This document shows, in pieces, positions 5,893 through 26,212 of a DNA stretch of 64,000 nucleotides; the stretch's first letter is position 1; each line of letters begins with the position of its first letter. Below the pieces are notes generated by a model. The model saw only the letters and a program-made list of their open reading frames with translations. It did not search any database and was not told the DNA's origin. The stretch is from Thermodesulfobacteriota bacterium (GTDB taxonomy: Bacteria; Desulfobacterota; Desulfobacteria; Desulfobacterales; SURF-7). The translations under genes were made by a program, and so were the position numbers. The stretch lies in contig JBMORA010000034.1 in NCBI GenBank assembly GCA_049320885.1, forward strand, positions 1 to 64,000, written 5' to 3'.

Positions 5893-7809
5893 ATGCAGGC
5901 TTTGAAAACGCTTCTTCATTTCTCCATTCCATTCAATCTGGTCGCCACGATTGTTCTTTTCACCGCTTCCGACGGCTGGACAGCGACATGGAATGTAGCA
6001 AGTGTGACGGAATTGCAGAACGTACTGACAACCTGCGCCACGAACAATCAGGACGATACCATCGAAATCGCCCAAGGGAATTATGGTGTTTCGACACCGC
6101 TGACCTATACTTCGAGCGAAAATTATTCGCTGACCATTGCGGGCGCCGGAAAAAGCGCCACGGTTCTCGATGGGGGCGGCACATACAGATTATTCTCCCT
6201 CAGCACCACCCAGCCCGATGCCGCCGTTCAGATCCGGAACATGACCCTCCGGAACGCCGCGGCCGGCGGGAACGGGGGCGCGCTGCAAATCTCGACCGAA
6301 GGAGCCGCTGTCACCATAAGCGATTGCGAATTGGCGGATTGCTCGGTCTCAAGCGGTACCAGCGTCGGAGGCGCCGCGAGCCTGAATACCGGTTCCGGAA
6401 CCATCCAGGTCATTTCCAGTGAATTCCTGCGCAACAGCTCCAAAGGAAATGTGGGCGGACTGTATGCCGCCACCGATACCGGGACCTGCTATTTCACCAA
6501 TTGCACATTTGAAGGAAACACGGTCAACAATAGCGGCGGGAGCGAGTATTACGGGGATGGCGGCGGCGCCATGTTCTATTCAAACGGGGCCAGCCAGGGG
6601 ATCATCACGGGAAATGTATTCCGCAACAACCAAGCCCAAGGCGGGAGCAATCCGGATGCCGGCGGACTGATGACCTACCAGCTGGGCAACGGTTCGACGG
6701 TCAGCATCGAAAGCAATACGTTTACCGCCAATGCCGCGGGATTGGGCGGCGGGGGGTGTTTCATCCGGATGAATGCGGATTCCTGCACCGTCACGGCGCG
6801 CGACAACACGTTTTCAAGCAACAGGACTTCCATCGGCAGCGGCGCGGGGATCCTGGTCTACATCAACGCAGGAACCCTCGCCTATTCCGGCAATGTTCAT
6901 ACGGGCAATAACGCTGCGGAAGACGGTGGCGGCGCCTGGCTCAGCCTTTTTTCAGGCAACGCCACGGTTTCCGGCAATACATTTGCCTCCAACCAATGCG
7001 CCCAAAACGGTGGCGGGTTGAGTATCTTTACGGATACAGGTCAGTTCACGATTTCAAGGAACCTTTTTTACGGAAATACGGCTGAAAATGCCGGCGCCGG
7101 TCTTTCCGGGGCCACGAGTTCCGGTACCGTGGCCATTGTCAACAATACCACCTACAACAACGCCGCATCCGGAGACGGCGGCGGTCTGTATCTGTATATG
7201 GATCAGGCCCTGGCCCGGATTTCCATGAGCAACAATATCCTCTGGAGCGACACGCCCAATGAACTGGGGTATTCCTTTGGTTCCGGCAGCGGAACCCTGG
7301 CCATGACCTATTCGGCTGTCATGAACGGCTCCGCCGAACCATGGTTTGGCCTCGGGTGCATTGCCAGCGACCCGCTTTTTGTCAATGCCGCCGGCGGGGA
7401 TTTTCATCTTTCCTGGTCCGATGCGCCACTTGCCAATAGCACCCAGTCCCCATGCATTGACAGCGCTGACCCCGCTTCGCCACTGGATGCCGACAATACC
7501 AGGGCGGATATGGGGGCGCTTGCCTATTCATCAGATTCCACGCCGACCGATCCGATCACATATTACCGTGACCAGGATGGAGACGGCTGCGGCGATCCGA
7601 ACCATTCGGTCCAGGACGACTCCCCGCCCACCGGGTATGTGCCCGACATGACCGATTGCAACGACCAGGATGCCGGCATTCACCCCGGCGCGACGGAAAT
7701 TGCCGACAATTCCATCGATGAAGATTGCGACGGCTCGGACCGGAAAAGCAGCGGCGATGCCGGCGGCGGCAGCAGCGGCTGTTTCATCTCAAGCCTGATC
7801 GGGAAATGA
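5893..7809 (+). CDS. Secreted right-handed parallel beta-helix protein with an Asp/Cys putative metal-binding motif and a C-terminal Gly-rich GCFI motif
   Basis: Signal peptide; repeated FxxN...GGG/GGA motifs; DPLFV...DFHL...SPCID...[13 protein letters not shown]...DCND...IHPGATE...DEDCDG; ends [15 protein letters not shown]. Confidence 0.82.
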
Positions 7810-8651: not shown

Positions 8652-10289
8652 TCATCCGGGATGACTATCCGTGCGCTTCCCTGTCTCGGCGCTGACAAAA
8701 CAAAACGGATCTTTATCCTTGAAAACATCCAGGCCATGGCTGTGGATGATCGCCAGACATCCCCGGCAGACAGGATTCAGGTGGCAGTTCCGACAGGCTT
8801 CGCTCCCATTCCGGTATTTTTGGGCAAGCTCGGAATGATAAATATCAAAAAGAGACTTGTGGCGGATGTCGCCGATTGGTGAAGGAAACTTCCTGCAGGC
8901 ATGAACTTCGCCGTCCGGGAGCAAGGAAACAAAATTGAACGCCGCTCCACAACCGTAGCCGGTGCAGCCGCCAAAAAACGCATTGTTTTTTTCTTTGCGG
9001 ATAATATTGAAGAGGTTGTCTTTAAAACCCAGTATCGGGTTATGCGCTGCTGCTGTTTCGTATTCATATAAAAAGGAGACAAATTTTTCTTTTTCCGGCA
9101 TCAGAAGATGTTTGCCCTCCCCGATGGCGGAAAGACGGTTGAAGGTAAAAAAATCCGCACGCTCCCGGAGCAATTCTCCAAGGGGAAGAACCTGATTCAG
9201 ATTGTCGCGGGTCAGGGTAAGCATGACCATGCTGTAAATACCCATCTTCCTGAGTTGGTCCAGAAAAACAAGCGAACGGCGGAAATGGCCAGCGCCGCGA
9301 ATATAATCATTGTGTTCTTCCAGGCCTTCCAGGCTGATCTGGAAAAAAAGAGGTTTTGTTGTTCTACATAGCCTTTCCATCTGAGCTTCGGCAGTGGGGT
9401 TGCCCAATATGGCCACCCCCAAACCTCTATCTGACGTATCATGATATAGTTGTAAAAAATGTGGATATAGCAGCGGATTTCCACCGGTAAAGGTCACCTG
9501 GCCCCTTACATTCATCCGGGTGCAAAACCCGTTAAAATCATCCAGGATGGATAGAGCCGTATCATAGGCCATGGGTTCCCGGTCACTTCGATCATAACAG
9601 TGCTTGCAATGAAGATCGCAGTCCTGGGTGATATGCCATTGGAGAGTAAAGATATCTGCGGATTCAAATGGCTCCAGGATTTTGAGGGATTGCGGCGGAA
9701 GGGAAACAGCCCTACGGATTCGGGAGGGGGGCGATAAAAGGAGGCCCTGTGCAACCGCCCTTCGCAAAACGGCCAGGATTGCACCGACAGTGGTTTGTCC
9801 GATTGCCGCTGCTTCCCGCGGATCCATCTCTTCGACGGCAATCTTCAAAGCGAGAAGATCGATATCCAGGGCTTCCCGGATATGGAATTCATTTGTTCGG
9901 GGATGACGCCAGATGATGACATGCACCGGAGAGGCTTCCGGCTGAGGGCAGTCTGGCCCGCTAACAGGATTTTTCAGCAGAGCGGCAATATGTTTCCAGG
10001 ATACCGGAACCAGGGAAAGACTAGGATTGATCGAAATTTTTTCAGGTGATTCCGTCGAATGTGCATCCTCTGACTTTACCTGGTGGGATATCCATTCCAA
10101 ACGGGCAAGATCGTCAATATAATCCGGAAGATGATGAGCTGTCTTCTGGGAAGCCAGCGCATCAGCGAATGTCTGCGGTGTGATGTCATTTCCCAATGCC
10201 GCCAGCACCCTGTCCCAGGATTCTTTACCAAGGATGCGGCGGCAGGTGAAAAAGACAGATTGATATCGTTCACTGCAAATTCGGGGCAA
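8652..10289 (-). CDS. sbtM: Radical SAM/SPASM peptide maturase, selenobiotic/thio(seleno)oxazole SbtM type
   Basis: FTLQWHITQDCDLHCKHC (CxxxCxxC), TGGNP, SPASM region GGCTGYGCGAAFNF...C...CRNC...CRGC...DPFC, an N-terminal extension of about 200 aa (DLARLEW), and an adjacent UGA-containing precursor. Confidence 0.88.
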   Translation of the reverse strand: MPRICSERYQSVFFTCRRILGKESWDRVLAALGNDITPQTFADALASQKTAHHLPDYIDDLARLEWISHQVKSEDAHSTESPEKISINPSLSLVPVSWKHIAALLKNPVSGPDCPQPEASPVHVIIWRHPRTNEFHIREALDIDLLALKIAVEEMDPREAAAIGQTTVGAILAVLRRAVAQGLLLSPPSRIRRAVSLPPQSLKILEPFESADIFTLQWHITQDCDLHCKHCYDRSDREPMAYDTALSILDDFNGFCTRMNVRGQVTFTGGNPLLYPHFLQLYHDTSDRGLGVAILGNPTAEAQMERLCRTTKPLFFQISLEGLEEHNDYIRGAGHFRRSLVFLDQLRKMGIYSMVMLTLTRDNLNQVLPLGELLRERADFFTFNRLSAIGEGKHLLMPEKEKFVSFLYEYETAAAHNPILGFKDNLFNIIRKEKNNAFFGGCTGYGCGAAFNFVSLLPDGEVHACRKFPSPIGDIRHKSLFDIYHSELAQKYRNGSEACRNCHLNPVCRGCLAIIHSHGLDVFKDKDPFCFVSAETGKRTDSHPG

Positions 10290-10344
10290 AATGTCTCAAG
10301 TCGAAATGGAAAGGTGGATCAGCCTTCATCAGGCCTGAAACCAT

Positions 10345-10361
10345 ACACGCAGACTGCGTGC
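10345..10361 (-). promoter_or_regulatory. SECIS-like hairpin 3 (after UGA codon 74)
   Basis: mRNA GCACGCA-GUC-UGCGUGU at +14..+30 after the UGA at 10377-10375; it lies beyond the UAG stop. Confidence 0.65.
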
Positions 10362-10368
10362 GGACCAC

Positions 10369-10596
10369 CTAGTTTCAGCCGCTTTTGGCGGGTTTTTCTT
10401 GTTTCACGTCCTCGTCGGTGCCACCGGCACCGGAAGAGCCGCCGCCTCAACCGCTTTGGGAGCTACCTGCTCCGTTTTTGTGGCCGCCTCAGGCGCTATT
10501 ACCGGATGAGCAGCCATCCAGCGCAAAAGCAGATCCGGTGATCAGGCCGGCAACGCAAAAACCTGCAAGGATCTTTTTCAAGTCTTTACCATCCAT
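10369..10596 (-). CDS. sbtA: Selenocysteine-containing RiPP precursor (SbtA family), 75 aa with three UGA/Sec codons
   Basis: RBS AGGAG, then MDGKDLKKILAGFCVAGLITGSAFALDGCSSGNSA-U-GGHKNGAGSSQSG-U-GGGSSGAGGTDEDVKQEKPAKSG-U-N-TAG. UGAs at 10491-10489, 10449-10447 and 10377-10375. Absent from the ORF track. Confidence 0.87.
10416..10432 (-). promoter_or_regulatory. SECIS-like hairpin 2 (after UGA codon 50)
   Basis: mRNA CGGUGCC-GGU-GGCACCG at +15..+31 after the UGA; GGU at +22..+24. Confidence 0.75.
10459..10473 (-). promoter_or_regulatory. SECIS-like hairpin 1 (after UGA codon 36)
   Basis: mRNA GGAGC-AGGUA-GCUCC at +16..+30 after the UGA; GGU at +22..+24. Confidence 0.75.
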
Positions 10597-11053
10597 AACG
10601 GTCTCCTATCAGGTTAAGGTGAGATGCTGCCTCCCCCCTGGGCCGGGGTCGGGGTATGAAACCAAAACAACACGCTCCTCGGATGCATTGATTTTTTCTA
10701 TTGCTTTGTCTTTTGCGATTGAAAAAAGACATATCAGACCGGCTCATAACGGTCAATCCCGTTTTTTTAGATGAAAGGGTCTCGGTCAAACCCTGTCTCG
10801 ACACAACCGCTCGGATTTCAGGCCGAAGCTGCCTGGGCCGATCCCAAGGTCTTCTGGAGGGCCGAGACCACAGGGTAGGCCTGCCTGAATGTGCTGGCTC
10901 AAACCGGTCAACCCGATTCCCCGCTATATTGGGAAACGTCCTAACGGCCATGCCGTCTGCCAAACCGTCGACGATTACCTGATCGGCCTTTTCGGGACCA
11001 ACCCGGCCGGTTCCGAAAAACCGCCGGCAAAACCCCATTATGTCCTTTTTTGT

Positions 11054-11074: not shown

Positions 11075-11133
11075 TAATCCGCTCCCCTGCAATGAGGATG
11101 CAACAGAATATCGAACAAAGGAGTCGCATTTCC

Positions 11134-11595
11134 ATGTTGGTAACGAAAAAGACCCAGTATACCCTTCGAGCCTTGCTGGAATTGGCAAAACAGTACGGCA
11201 ACGGTCCGATCAAAATTGCCGCTATCGCCGAAGCCCAATCCATACCCATGCGCTTTTTGGAGGTGATCCTGAATCAGTTGAAACCCACCGGCTGGCTGGT
11301 ATCCAAACGGGGGCATTACGGCGGCTACCAACTCTCCCGGCCACCGCAGCGCATCAACGTGGGGGATGTCATTCGGTTTCTGTCCCGCAACCACGGTTCG
11401 GAGTATTGCACCCTGAATGTCCGGCGCTTTGATTGCGGCCTGAATGGCGCATGCGCGTTTCTGCCCATGTGGCAAAAAGTCCAGGAATCCATGTTCGATG
11501 TGTTCGACCGCACGACGCTGGAGAACCTCATGGAAAATGAAAAAGTCGCCATGGAAGCGGAGGTGTCCGAAAAGGCCCTTAAACTATTAGGGTAA
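11134..11595 (+). CDS. Rrf2-family transcriptional regulator with three Cys (probable Fe-S ligands)
   Basis: YTLRALLELA, IPMRFLEVILNQLK, SKRGHYGGYQL, C-x8-C-x5-C; RBS AAGGAG before ATG 11134. Confidence 0.9.
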   Translation: MLVTKKTQYTLRALLELAKQYGNGPIKIAAIAEAQSIPMRFLEVILNQLKPTGWLVSKRGHYGGYQLSRPPQRINVGDVIRFLSRNHGSEYCTLNVRRFDCGLNGACAFLPMWQKVQESMFDVFDRTTLENLMENEKVAMEAEVSEKALKLLG

Positions 11596-15622: not shown

Positions 15623-16525
15623 ATGTCCACACCTGTAACATACAAACGATTTATCTCAAACAGTGGGCTGCTGGTGGTTTCATTCTTGTTGATCATTGGG
15701 TGTAATAAATGGTCAACTGATTTCAATCAGGAAGGAAAAATCAAGAATATCGCCCTGGTAATTGGAAATGGTGGATATCTGCACACCCCCCCCCTGGGAA
15801 ACCCCAAAAACGATGCGCAAGATATAGGAGAAGCTTTGCGGATAGTAGAATTTGATGTCATCGAAGGTTTCGACCTGGATTCGGAACATATGAAAGAGAA
15901 ATTAAGCAAGTTCTATTCAAGCCTGGAGGGAGCGGAGGTAGGGCTGTTTTTCTATGCTGGCCATGGCCTACAGGTTTCGGGGAGAAACTTTCTAATTCCA
16001 GTCGATGCAAAATTTGATGACGATTTGGTTGGACTCTCGGGCACACTCGAAGAGCAGGCCATTGAATTAAACGAAATCGTAAGAGTTTTGGGAGAAAAGG
16101 CTAAAACCAGCATCGTTTTTTTGGATGCATGCCGTGACAACCCGTTAACAGCTGAATTGGGAAAAAACGCGGAAAGTCGTGGGGTAATAACTGTTCCTAG
16201 AATGAACAGGCGTGGGAGATCAATAGCCTCAGCAGAAATACGGCGTGGCTTGGCAGAGTTGGAAGCGGGCTCAAGCATGAATATGTTTATCGCCTACGCG
16301 ACTCAACCGGGAAACATCGCCTTGGACGGTATCGGTCGTAATAGCCCGTTTTCGGATGCTTTGAAACGTTTTCTCGTTGTTCCAGGCCTTGAGCTGCGGC
16401 AGGTTTTGACGCAAGTTCGCAAAGAAGTAATTGCCAAAACTCAAAACAAGCAGGTCCCTTGGGATCATGCCTCGTTAACCGAACGTTTTTACTTTATCAA
16501 ACAAATGGAGGCACCACCTCCATGA
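15623..16525 (+). CDS. Caspase-family (peptidase C14) protein, probable lipoprotein
   Basis: ALVIGNGGY, LGNPKNDA, FFYAGHG (catalytic His), LDACRDNP (catalytic Cys), NSPFS, KQVPW; lipobox-like IIGC. Confidence 0.9.
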   Translation: MSTPVTYKRFISNSGLLVVSFLLIIGCNKWSTDFNQEGKIKNIALVIGNGGYLHTPPLGNPKNDAQDIGEALRIVEFDVIEGFDLDSEHMKEKLSKFYSSLEGAEVGLFFYAGHGLQVSGRNFLIPVDAKFDDDLVGLSGTLEEQAIELNEIVRVLGEKAKTSIVFLDACRDNPLTAELGKNAESRGVITVPRMNRRGRSIASAEIRRGLAELEAGSSMNMFIAYATQPGNIALDGIGRNSPFSDALKRFLVVPGLELRQVLTQVRKEVIAKTQNKQVPWDHASLTERFYFIKQMEAPPP

Positions 16526-23432: not shown

Positions 23433-24806
23433 ATGCGCGGTCTACCCAAACACCATGTGACCACCGGCAGCTTTTATGTGGGCGAATCAAAAGCCTTGAT
23501 TATTGAGGCTTATCTTGGAACCTGCGTGGGGCTGGCCATTCACGATAAGACCTCGGGTGTCGGAGGCCTGCTGCACCTGCTGCTGCCCGAACCGGTTTCA
23601 ACGGAATCCGGATCCAATCCGGACAAGTATGCCCGGACCGGTGTGCCGCGGTTTCTTGAAGCCCTGAAGGCGGCCGGCGCGGTTCCTCACCGCATGCAGG
23701 CCTGGATCGCCGGTGGCGCGCTGGTGGGCCCCCTCACCCGCCAGGACATGGCCCTGGACATCGGCGGCCGCACGGCGGAAATCGCCCTCCGCCATCTGAA
23801 ACAGGAAGGCATCCGGATCGAACAGGCCGAAACCGGTGGGTTTTTCACCTGCTCCCTGGAACTCAATCTGACCACCTGGGAAACCCGGATTCAACCCGCC
23901 GGCTTCGACAAGCTGGATCCCGCTGCCGAAACCGCTCCACCCAGCCCCGAGGACATCGACCGGGCCATCAGCCGGCTTCAGCCCATTCCCCAGGTGGCCC
24001 TGAAAATCATGCGGCTCATCGGCGAGGATCGCCATGATTTCAAGACCATGGCCAGCGAGGTGCGCAAGGACCAGGTCCTCACCGCCCAAACCCTGCGATT
24101 ATGCAATTCAGCACTCTTCGCCGGCCGGCCGCGCATCGATTCCATTGAAGACGCCCTCATCATTCTGGGCCAGGACGCCCTGGTCAAATCGATTTTGCAA
24201 GTATCCATCAACCGTTATTTCGATCAATCCGCCAACGGCTACGCCCTGTGCAAGGGGGGACTGTTCCATCACAGCATCGGCACGGCCAGAATAGCGGAAA
24301 AACTGGCCCAGTTGACGGAAGCGGCGCTCCCGTCCGTGGCCTACACCGCCGGCCTGCTCCACGATATCGGCATGGTGGTTCTGGACCAATATGTGGCCGG
24401 CTCCTTTCCGTATTTCTACCGGGGGATGCAGCTGGACGGCCGCAGCATCCTGACCATCGAGCGGGAGCTGTTCGGCATTGACCATCCCGAAATCGGCAAG
24501 CGCCTGGCCGCCAGATGGTCCTTTCCGGCCTCGCTGACGGAGGCCGTGGCCCTGCACCATGAGCCGGAGAAGGCGGTCATTGCGCCCGAACTGACCCATA
24601 TCGTCTATCTTGCGGAACTGCTCATGTCCCGATTTCATACCGGTTTGGAGCTGGAACGCAGCGACACCGACCATTTCGACCGGCGGCTCGCCGCCATTGG
24701 ATTGTCCCGGAACCATTTCATCCAGATCGTCGACCGCATCCCGGCGGAAGTGTTCGGCGAGCTGCTTGCCAAAACCATGGAACAGCCCACGGAAAACAGC
24801 CCATGA
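23433..24806 (+). CDS. CheD-HDOD fusion protein
   Basis: N-terminal CheD (LGTCVG, GGLLHLLLP, KYA, AGGA); C-terminal HDOD (LQPIPQVALKI, DQVLTAQTLRLCNS, AGLLHDIG, HH). Confidence 0.88.
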   Translation: MRGLPKHHVTTGSFYVGESKALIIEAYLGTCVGLAIHDKTSGVGGLLHLLLPEPVSTESGSNPDKYARTGVPRFLEALKAAGAVPHRMQAWIAGGALVGPLTRQDMALDIGGRTAEIALRHLKQEGIRIEQAETGGFFTCSLELNLTTWETRIQPAGFDKLDPAAETAPPSPEDIDRAISRLQPIPQVALKIMRLIGEDRHDFKTMASEVRKDQVLTAQTLRLCNSALFAGRPRIDSIEDALIILGQDALVKSILQVSINRYFDQSANGYALCKGGLFHHSIGTARIAEKLAQLTEAALPSVAYTAGLLHDIGMVVLDQYVAGSFPYFYRGMQLDGRSILTIERELFGIDHPEIGKRLAARWSFPASLTEAVALHHEPEKAVIAPELTHIVYLAELLMSRFHTGLELERSDTDHFDRRLAAIGLSRNHFIQIVDRIPAEVFGELLAKTMEQPTENSP

Positions 24807-26212
24807 AACCGACCGATATCCAACGGAAACAGCTCCAGTCCCTGCCCGGCGTCGATCGCATCCTCCTCCTCGCCCGGGAAATGCCGGGAATGGACGCAGT
24901 CCCCAAATCCGTGCTGGTCGGCTCCATCCGCAAGGTGATCGACGGTCTGCGCCAAGCGGTTCTGCGGGAAACCGGCCAGGTTCCGGATGAAGGGGCCATT
25001 CTGGCCGCGGTCGGTCGCCAGGTGGAACGGGAAATGACCCCGAACCTGAAACCGGTCGTCAACGCCACCGGGGTGGTGGTGCACACCAACCTGGGCCGTT
25101 CGCTGCTGGCCGCGGAAGCGGTTGCGGCCATCACCCGTATCGCGGCCACCTATTCCAATCTGGAATTCGATCTGACCTCCGGCAGGCGCGGTCTGCGGTA
25201 CAGTCTCGTGGAAGACCTGATCCGGGAAATCAGCGGTGCGGAAGCCGCCATGGCGGTGAACAACAACGCCGGAGCGGTCCTGCTCTGTCTGGACACGCTG
25301 GCCAGGGGCAAGGCCGTGGTGGTTTCCCGGGGGGAACTGGTGGAGATCGGCGGTTCCTTCCGGATTCCCGATGTCATGGCCAGGAGCGGAGCTGTCTTGA
25401 AAGAAGTCGGCACCACCAACCGGACCCACCCGCGGGATTATGAGCAGGCCATTTCTTCGGAAACCGCCCTGCTGCTGAAGGTACATACCAGCAACTTCAG
25501 TGTCGTTGGCTTCACCGCGTCCGTATCCCTCCCGGATCTCGTGCAGCTGGCAGGGCGCTACGGGCTGCCGGTCATGGAGGATCTGGGCAGCGGCACGTTC
25601 ATGGACTTTTCCGCTTTCGGGCTGATGAAAGAGCCCACGGTCCAGGAATCGGTGGCCGCCGGGGCCGACGTGGTCACCTTCAGCGGCGATAAACTCCTCG
25701 GCGGTCCCCAGGCCGGCATCATCGTCGGCCGGAAATCCATCCTCGACGAGATCAAGAAAAACCCCCTGACCCGGGCCCTGCGCATCGACAAGCTGACCCT
25801 GGCGGCTTTGGAAGCCACCTTGCGCCTGTACCGCGACCCGGCCACGATGGTGGAAAAAATCCCCACCCTGCGGATGCTGCTTACCCCCCTTGCGGTCATC
25901 GAAAAACGCGCCGACATCCTGATCCGGTTGCTGGAAGCCATCGCCGATGACCGGATTGCCGTGTGCCGGAAATACCTGTCTTCCAAAACCGGCGGCGGCG
26001 CCCTGCCCCTGATGGAGCTGCCCAGTTGCTGCGTCGGCCTGACCGTGGGAACGATGACCGCCGCCGCCATCGAAAAACGCCTGCGGTCGGCGGCGGTCCC
26101 CGTCATCGGCCGCATCGAGGACGACCTGTTCCTCATGGACGCCCGCACCATCCAGGACGGCGAGCTGGAAATCATCCGGGACGCGGTTGTGGAACTGATC
26201 CAAACCCGATGA
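24803..26212 (+). CDS. selA: L-seryl-tRNA(Sec) selenium transferase
   Basis: NATGVVVHTNLGRS, VNNNAGA, SRGELVEIGGSFRIPDVM, EVGTTNRTH, FSGDKLLGGPQAG. Confidence 0.96.
   Translation: MKPTDIQRKQLQSLPGVDRILLLAREMPGMDAVPKSVLVGSIRKVIDGLRQAVLRETGQVPDEGAILAAVGRQVEREMTPNLKPVVNATGVVVHTNLGRSLLAAEAVAAITRIAATYSNLEFDLTSGRRGLRYSLVEDLIREISGAEAAMAVNNNAGAVLLCLDTLARGKAVVVSRGELVEIGGSFRIPDVMARSGAVLKEVGTTNRTHPRDYEQAISSETALLLKVHTSNFSVVGFTASVSLPDLVQLAGRYGLPVMEDLGSGTFMDFSAFGLMKEPTVQESVAAGADVVTFSGDKLLGGPQAGIIVGRKSILDEIKKNPLTRALRIDKLTLAALEATLRLYRDPATMVEKIPTLRMLLTPLAVIEKRADILIRLLEAIADDRIAVCRKYLSSKTGGGALPLMELPSCCVGLTVGTMTAAAIEKRLRSAAVPVIGRIEDDLFLMDARTIQDGELEIIRDAVVELIQTR

Follow-up and report, generated by a model that had tools for sequence, protein, structure and literature searches.

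The window, a stretch of 64,000 nucleotides from contig JBMORA010000034.1 of a Thermodesulfobacteriota bacterium (assembly GCA_049320885.1), carries on its minus strand a short gene, sbtA, whose reading frame is interrupted by three UGA codons and which is followed by sbtM, a gene for a radical S-adenosylmethionine (SAM) enzyme. The question raised by this locus is what peptide such a gene encodes and what its modified product does. By its sequence the locus is a further member of the known SbtA/SbtM family, and its three selenocysteine (Sec) codons are not the news. The locus itself is ordinary; it mends a truncated annotation and adds one three-Sec SbtA. A link of the whole family to the bufferin/oxazolin metallophores matters more and makes the function of the family directly testable. 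By analogy, the sbt system is likely to be, in effect, a bufferin/oxazolin-type cassette in which the place of the O2-using multinuclear non-heme iron-dependent oxidase (MNIO) is taken by an enzyme of the radical SAM class, with the same partner joined to it by fusion.

The sbtA gene and its SbtM maturase

The reading frame at 10596..10369 (minus strand) was found to be identical to that given in the earlier note: 75 codons, of which numbers 36, 50 and 74 are TGA, then AAC and TAG, and an AGGAG upstream. The assignment to the SbtA/SbtM family made there was confirmed by scores of the peptide and of the enzyme above the cut-offs of TIGR04081 and TIGR04082, and both a CxxxCxxC motif and a SPASM domain were present, as it had described, in the enzyme encoded 3′ of the precursor gene on the same strand. 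The features concerned are as follows.

10369..10596, minus strand: sbtA precursor gene (TIGR04081 48.6 bits, cut-off 30.5)
10603..10607, minus strand: ribosome-binding site AGGAG, kept in 5/5 aligned genes
10489..10491, minus strand: UGA 1, codon 36, context S-A-U-G
10447..10449, minus strand: UGA 2, codon 50, context S-G-U-G, replaced by Cys in homologue P0003
10375..10377, minus strand: UGA 3, codon 74, context S-G-U-N-stop
8652..10289, minus strand: sbtM, a 545-amino-acid thio(seleno)oxazole radical SAM/SPASM maturase (TIGR04082 715.7 bits, cut-off 350; Radical_SAM and SPASM matches)
9597..9620, minus strand: CxxxCxxC motif for the SAM cluster, residues 224-231
8781..8951, minus strand: SPASM domain, residues 447-503 (Pfam match)

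TIGR04081 was the sole family model matched by the peptide in the NCBIfam and Pfam scans; records of SbtA precursors carry Pfam PF27804. Both genes are present in one copy in the host genome, and sbtM starts 79 nt past the TAG of sbtA on the same strand. The C-terminal cysteines of SbtM lie at residues 442, 447, 465, 499, 502, 508, 511 and 530, and the named records with an SbtM at 78-80% identity are those of Desulfosudis and Desulfocicer, so that the host is probably an anaerobe of Desulfobacterales type.

To place the three UGA codons in the family, relatives were taken from three sources: the family of the host (sbtM in 7/18 genomes), a phylum sample (TIGR04081 match in 34/401 genomes, from which the best 30 loci were taken) and a genome contig collection (22 loci). 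A precursor was found in 54 of the 58 loci examined and in none of the other four (L023, L037, L039 and L070), which gave 55 distinct peptides. Among these the number of UGA codons was 0 in 5, 1 in 5, 2 in 18, 3 in 21 and 4 in 6, counts in which related loci are not independent of one another and the last UGA was classed as Sec or stop by a context rule. Three Sec as a rare variant, which the earlier note had implied, was thus ruled out, three being the commonest count. Whether a three-Sec variant is catalogued had been left open there; SbtA with several Sec is already in print, a review describing SbtA with "at least two SeCys" (PMC9204691). The family call, the Sec read-through and the multi-site substrate proposed in the earlier note held; the hairpins, the N-terminus of export/lipoprotein type and the MNIO-partner domain of SbtM described below were not mentioned in it.

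The consensus of 119 Sec sites in the family was S-[GSA]-U-[GST]-G. In the window, Gly-Sec occurs at 2/3 sites and GGUG at 0/3, site 1 having Ala before Sec; the same review places Sec "generally" within a GGUG motif, with the modification at Gly-Sec (PMC9204691). UGA and Cys codons were found to exchange at aligned motifs, with U-U-U-U in L030, C-U-C-U in L040 and C-C-C-C in the first gene of L041. Selenium is not obligatory, because all-Cys forms of SbtA exist. Tandem sbtA genes were observed in L049, L055, L059, L041 and L062; the first three pair one sbtA of lipobox type with one of signal peptidase I type, and the last two each include one all-Cys sbtA.

UGA codons and SECIS-like hairpins

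A hairpin of 5-7 bp with G in the loop begins 13-15 nt 3′ of each window UGA, so that these codons are more than chance. Each has the look of a selenocysteine insertion sequence (SECIS).

10459..10473, minus strand: SECIS-like hairpin 1, in frame, encoding G-A-G-S-S
10416..10432, minus strand: SECIS-like hairpin 2, in frame, encoding G-A-G-G-T
10345..10361, minus strand: SECIS-like hairpin 3, intergenic, past the UAG, an arrangement common in the family

With test thresholds that were fixed after the window sites had been seen, a hairpin was scored at 3/3 window sites and at 108/128 UGA sites of the family, as against 1/30 motif Cys codons and 147/3000 random TGA triplets of the genome. The stem was 97% paired over 12 sites of four genes and showed 19 double changes; the structure used was read from the same sites, 0/500 shuffles scored as high, and slid controls were at most 50% paired. 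The coding conservation past the first UGA that the earlier note had made a test of its reading was found. All indels in the coding region of the aligned sbtA genes keep the frame, and the proportion of synonymous differences (pS) exceeded that of nonsynonymous ones (pN) past the first UGA in 7/8 pairs (e.g. 0.28 vs 0.087). The Cys codons looked for at the UGA positions were likewise found in homologues, in P0003 at window codon 50 and in other members of the family. Taken together, the three window UGAs are almost certainly read through, most likely as selenocysteine, each via its own hairpin.

The gene is under-annotated rather than new, because its close relatives are cut off at their first UGA in the public protein records. 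No full-length Sec-bearing SbtA protein record was found, in a collection that may not return proteins with U; in records P0170 and P0171, Trp stands at the Sec positions, apparently from TGA called as Trp. RNA evidence on expression was also sought and discarded: one run held 0.06 of the words, and its contigs, one near-identical 211-nt sbtM piece and two sbtA-like pieces less than 90% alike, are uninformative for this locus.

Some relatives depart from one hairpin per UGA. In L051, L053, L056, L057, L062 and L068, pairs of UGA codons lie 3 or 5 codons apart with a hairpin at the usual distance from the second only, and one SECIS may serve both Sec codons of such a pair. Codon 57 of the L040 sbtA is a UGA in motif context without a hairpin, at which the public record ends; this codon could be a genuine stop or else a site in decay.

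A partner-type domain fused to SbtM

The N-terminal part of SbtM was then compared with domain profiles and known folds.

9723..10289, minus strand: N-terminal domain of SbtM, residues 1-189, assigned by profile and fold as a fused DUF2063-RRE domain of the HvfC/BufC partner type (RRE, recognition element of peptides made on the ribosome and modified after translation, RiPPs)

Among 36 aligned SbtM N-domains, six matched HvfC (best E 4.6e-8), four matched DUF2063 weakly and one matched NGO1945_C. A search with their profile gave 489 representatives, of which 150 were listed; from the matches listed, 21 proteins were chosen by length and offset, namely 20 free-standing proteins of 220-260 amino acids and one full SbtM. 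All 20 free-standing proteins scored above the gathering score of DUF2063 (profile E 1e-21 to 1e-32), and all 20 had matches to HvfC as well as to the N-terminal portion of the SbtM model. Ten partners were looked up; those that had names were DUF2063 or HvfC/BufC-type proteins, and they came from Myxococcus, Corallococcus and Planctomycetota.

The fold agreed with the profiles. An AlphaFold model of the N-domain (mean predicted local distance difference test score, pLDDT, 89) was aligned to NGO1945 (3DEE) with Z 13.9 and a root-mean-square deviation (rmsd) of 3.4 over 171 residues, and to TglHI (8HCI, chain C) with Z 12.5 and an rmsd of 3.9 over 183, the next match reaching Z 6.9; the same two entries were at the top with Foldseek. 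When the PDB was searched by sequence with the profile of the N-domain, no match was below E 0.38. On profile and modelled fold, SbtM unites in one fused protein a radical SAM enzyme and a DUF2063-RRE domain of the kind that partners MNIO enzymes. A quick, unrooted tree divided the SbtM N-domains and the partners into two groups (SH-like approximate likelihood ratio test, SH-aLRT, 99); being unrooted with two groups, it gives no direction of descent.

The literature searched holds no statement of a DUF2063/HvfC-type domain in SbtM or of an export/lipoprotein signal in SbtA, although the two primary SbtM papers (Haft and Basu 2011; Lewis et al. 2021) lay outside it and may already note these; it ties SbtM and MNIO systems only by the heterocycle. 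The SbtM term was absent from the one supplementary file of PMC12710340 that was searched, and no TIGR04081 passage occurs in the available portion of the Haft selenoprotein preprint (10.1101/2022.07.06.499078).

The free-standing partners were also viewed in their loci. A metagenome scan with a partner alignment centred on Myxococcus gave eight loci (L078-L085); the upstream gene scored above the BufB MNIO cut-off in six, and the other two begin too near the contig end. In 4/8 loci there is a precursor whose N-terminus is hydrophobic, whose lipobox reads T-G-C or G-A-C and in which [GS]-C-G is repeated. These precursor-MNIO-DUF2063 cassettes lie at L078:2120-4048, L079:2802-4717, L081:2782-4714 and L085:2654-4660; their lipobox precursors have GSCG-type repeats, no NCBIfam precursor model passed, and their products are candidates for unnamed lipidated thiooxazole RiPPs. 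The precursor of one MNIO cassette ends S-G-C-G-G-K-K, to be compared with SbtA ends such as S-G-U-G-G-K-K. No MNIO was found in the host genome (0 PF05114 matches in a 98%-complete assembly; the Caulobacter control was positive).

The N-terminus of SbtA

Hydrophobicity and motif patterns were analysed over the 54 intact precursors, L064 being excluded for an apparent frameshift.

10510..10596, minus strand: predicted export signal, with a basic n-region, a hydrophobic h-region and a lipobox-like end L-D-G-C29 (pattern analysis, 54 SbtA)

All 54 precursors have a hydrophobic, uncharged stretch after a Lys-containing start. In 20/54 this stretch is closed by a Cys at residue 27-29 in the context [LVI]-x-[GSA]-C: position −3 is L, V or I in 17/20, position −1 is G, S or A in 20/20, and the residue after the Cys varies. 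This Cys is never encoded by UGA, is never followed by a hairpin (0/20) and precedes the first Sec, which is at residue 33 or later in all, and it therefore fits the role of a lipidated residue. Most of the other 34 precursors have a small-x-small site, e.g. A-H-A, ahead of the first motif. Kin carry I-S-G-C, V-S-G-C, V-T-G-C or L-A-G-C at the position of window C29, and Lnt is encoded in the host genome. In the relatives' loci, sbtM was the sole conserved neighbour of sbtA, no protease, transporter or immunity gene being found as a conserved neighbour, so that there is no dedicated protease or exporter. These patterns make it probable that SbtA is exported through the general secretion route; for the window peptide, lipidation at Cys29 is predicted with an even chance of being right.

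Proposed mechanism and function

The recoding signals and the selenium machinery being observed, SelB with Sec-tRNA would read each UGA via its own hairpin. SbtM, whose fused DUF2063-RRE domain is recognised by homology, would hold the precursor by that domain, and its radical SAM core would oxidise Sec or Cys twice (−4 Da) to a 5-selenooxazole or thio(seleno)oxazole. Such thio(seleno)oxazole formation, with loss of 4 Da, has been demonstrated in vitro with another SbtM (PMC9204691), and in the window SbtM probably modifies all three Sec sites. The peptide would leave by general secretion, and, going by the patterns of the family, Cys29 would be diacylglycerol-modified or the signal cut by signal peptidase I. 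In the envelope, selenol-bearing heterocycles on a flexible Gly/Ser/Lys chain would bind Cu(I) or other soft metals.

The last step is drawn by analogy with several reports. Bufferins contain 5-thiooxazoles made by MNIO, have a DUF2063 partner and signal-bearing precursors, and bind periplasmic copper (10.1101/2024.03.18.585515; PMC11626156); the DUF2063-RRE type of partner goes with precursors that have export signals (PMC12452194); lipidated RiPP hybrids, named DAG-RiPPs, exist and are described for MNIO clusters only, the word "radical" having no occurrence in the portion available (PMC13056109); and a band at 302-305 nm is common to MNIO compounds and the product of SbtM (10.1101/2025.11.18.689057; PMC12538549). 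What natural products are made by radical SAM RiPP clusters of the sbt kind, and to what end, is described as mostly unknown (PMC9204691). The metal-binder proposal is made because of the copper binding of bufferins, the link of partner and signal, the lipidated versions and the shared band. By this analogy, the chances that the selenol-bearing heterocycles bind soft metals as the 5-thiooxazoles of bufferins do are about equal to those that they do not, and the whole chain, from Sec read-through over selenooxazoles and export (possibly with a lipid anchor) to a soft-metal binder of the envelope, may hold with a probability that we would also put near the middle of the scale. Only tentatively do we suggest the most specific form of it, in which SbtA/SbtM would be an anaerobic selenium branch of the bufferin/oxazolin metallophores and the window product a lipid-anchored tri-selenooxazole buffering envelope copper or mercury in a sulfate reducer.

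If true, this would give the SbtA/SbtM family a function. An O2-dependent and an oxygen-independent class of enzymes, unrelated to each other, would build one and the same heterocycle on a common docking scaffold, and ligands with selenium would share in the metal buffering of sulfate reducers. The product would be a selenium-containing RiPP-lipoprotein and a DAG-RiPP made by a radical SAM enzyme, neither of which was found in the literature searched. The partner domain and the predicted export/lipoprotein signal suggest the membrane or periplasm as the place of the product, a triacylated N-terminus as its possible mark, and Cu(I) and Hg(II) as metals that it may bind.

Several observations weigh against this proposal. 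The first 205 residues of the window SbtM scored only E 1.1e-4 and 22 bits against NF050145 (HvfC), whose cut-off is 142, and gave no Pfam match. The window lipobox L-D-G-C29 is non-canonical, with Asp at −2, and A23-F-A25 offers an alternative site of signal peptidase I type. The leader is conserved beyond the needs of a pure signal, M1, K7, L10, A11, G12 and L18 each being kept in at least 90% of 42 leaders. Past the first UGA, one sbtA pair lacked a purifying signal (pS 0.078 vs pN 0.077). Neither a metal-resistance nor a DoxX gene was found as a conserved neighbour of sbtAM in the relatives' loci. Cys might be put in at the sbtA UGAs by the selC*/selB* pair that the genome has at another locus. 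Homology between SbtA and the precursors of the MNIO cassettes is not claimed, the SbtA profile scoring above all shuffles for 1/4 only, and the likeness put forward is one of architecture.

With the same biosynthesis and export, the product might instead serve as a redox buffer, an antioxidant of the envelope, or as a store of selenium. In bearing a selenol on a five-membered aromatic ring it would be like ovoselenol and selenoneine. The upstream region was searched for regulatory sites, and the following was found.

10687..10701, minus strand: candidate operator that departs by one mismatch from the palindrome ATAG-N7-CTAT

The exact palindrome was enriched upstream of sbtA, with 7/55 occurrences (L015, L032, L034, L036, L038, L044 and L055) as against a mean of 0.06 and a maximum of 2 in shuffles and 0/53 in control windows. 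It overlaps or sits just 3′ of promoter-like TTGAC sites and is likely to be a repressor site; in form it resembles the OxyR/LysR box. Two near-matches also precede the selenium-linked yedE of the host (G000:C9:378299-379506, TIGR04112 above cut-off), as a redox or storage role might lead one to expect. A selenium regulon shared with yedE was nevertheless rejected, the palindrome being absent upstream of yedE in 8/8 other loci and yedE itself present in only 9/35 genomes, and no oxidative-stress regulon is evidently marked by the palindrome in the host genome. All-Cys forms of SbtA also speak against a product that depends on selenium, and copper is the metal bound by those systems of this partner domain and heterocycle that have been characterised (PMC11626156). 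We therefore regard a redox or storage role as rather unlikely, though it is the alternative that survives best, and retain the envelope metal binder as the preferred function.

Alternative readings of the leader and of the UGA codons

The N-terminus of SbtA could also be a classical RiPP leader, bound by the RRE of SbtM and cut by an unlinked protease to release one or more small diffusible peptides with an antimicrobial or signalling role, a role hinted at by the names "selenobiotic" and "selenobacteriocin". In its C-terminal half, the SbtM N-domain does share the RRE fold with proteins that bind leaders (6JX3, 5V1U), and the six conserved leader positions, which suggest that SbtM also recognises the leader, and the non-canonical window lipobox agree with such a role. 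Yet no protease, transporter or immunity gene is conserved beside sbtAM, the hydrophobic stretch of all 54 precursors ends in a lipobox-type Cys or a small-x-small site, and DUF2063-linked RREs accompany export signals and not leader motifs (PMC12710340). One conserved signal could, moreover, play both roles. A leader in place of an export signal is thus improbable, and export by the general secretion route remains the preferred reading of the N-terminus.

As to decoding, the selA gene noted earlier at 24803 was confirmed, and selB, selC and selD were also found in the genome.

24803..26212, plus strand: selA, selenocysteine synthase of the host, outside the cluster (TIGR00474 600.2 bits)

In all, the host genome has selA, two selB, a selD with its own TGA and two UCA tRNAs. 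A selB was present in 39/39 sbtA/sbtM genomes, a count with no comparison set, which therefore speaks for compatibility and not dependence. The second UCA tRNA, at G000:C1:315730, has, as read from its sequence, A1:U72, U73, an acceptor stem of 8 pairs and a T-stem of 4 pairs with a bulged A, and the second selB, 32% identical to the first, lies just 3′ of it. Both fit the selC* tRNA-Cys(UCA)/SelB*/CysRS* system of Desulfobacterales (PMC7609411), and SbtM accepts Cys as well as Sec (PMC9204691). The UGAs might accordingly be read partly or wholly as Cys, giving a thio/seleno mixture set by selenium supply, a course that is compatible with the proposed export and metal binding. However, cysS*, recognised as a CysRS without anticodon domain, was not found in the 98%-complete assembly, where there are only a canonical CysRS and a cysteine synthase-CysRS fusion, nor downstream of three related selB* genes, and the three-UGA relatives G015 and G017 show one selB only (E 1e-70 or better). 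We consider Cys decoding to be of low probability, and reading as Sec is preferred. That the first UGA is a true stop, giving a 35-amino-acid product with the remainder a relic or chance, has next to no likelihood: the records P0173 and P0176 of close relatives do stop there, because gene callers terminate at UGA, but every UGA has a covarying hairpin, indels keep the frame, Cys is swapped in and the Sec machinery is complete.

The surroundings of the second tRNA differ among genomes. In the host, the selC*-type tRNA and selB at G000:C1:315730-317772 (L011:7731-9773) are followed by a gene for a subunit of 2-hydroxyglutaryl-CoA dehydratase, not by cysS*; G002 has two selC*-type tRNA/selB copies, and in G013 the copy carries G1:C72, with selB* and yedE after it. 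The fused CysRS, at G000:C1:237826-240123, is a second CysRS on a frame of 765 amino acids whose N-terminal part reads like cysteine synthase, and it may be the enzyme by which the selC*-type tRNA is charged.

Upstream region and neighbouring genes

A scan for promoters and terminators gave counts at the level of shuffles, with no minus-strand terminator between sbtA and sbtM; the conserved TTGAC upstream of sbtA is only suggestive of a promoter element. Three genes of the window, none of which is a conserved neighbour of sbtAM in the relatives, were observed nearby.

11092-11595, plus strand: regulator of the Rrf2 family, divergent from sbtA
15623-16525, plus strand: caspase-domain (Peptidase_C14) gene
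5893-7809, plus strand: beta-helix protein with a putative metal-binding motif of MopE type

Comparison with known systems

Compared with the selC*/SelB*/CysRS* system, the second UCA tRNA and second selB of the host match the described marks and order (PMC7609411). The host differs in that no cysS* was found, and its tRNA/selB locus lies on another contig, apart from sbtAM.

With the SbtA/SbtM system the window pair agrees as follows: the two genes adjoin on the same strand, both products score above cut-off, UGA codons go with SECIS-like hairpins, the enzyme has radical SAM and SPASM domains, and the host is Sec-capable. The described Gly-Sec is present at two of the three sites of the window sbtA, whose contexts are S-A-U-G, S-G-U-G and S-G-U-N as against the "GGUG" of the review (PMC9204691). 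The locus has no variant-defining trait, three Sec being the modal number. An export signal, a lipobox and a DUF2063-type domain go unmentioned in the available portions of PMC9204691 and PMC11002830.

DAG-RiPPs differ from the window SbtA, in which the lipobox has Asp at −2 and lipidation is predicted only. What they share with the SbtA family is an extra Cys right after the hydrophobic N-terminus in a subset of precursors, with siblings that have ends of signal peptidase I type (PMC13056109).

The closest comparison beyond the family itself is with the bufferin/oxazolin systems (BufA/BufB/BufC, HvfA/HvfB/HvfC and the Myxococcota type of L078-L085). Unlike these, sbt has a radical SAM enzyme as catalyst and Sec in place of Cys, and its locus lacks the EGKCG, DUF2282 and Buf2 signatures and has no DoxX or ECF sigma gene as a conserved neighbour. 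The DUF2063-RRE domain with the 3DEE fold is the same, in SbtM as a homologous domain fused to the enzyme, the single window sequence lying below the HvfC and DUF2063 cut-offs. The precursors are alike in bearing a signal (predicted for SbtA), in low complexity and in repeated small-Cys/Sec-Gly sites, and the class of heterocycle, a 5-thiooxazole absorbing at about 305 nm, is shared with SbtM as reported.

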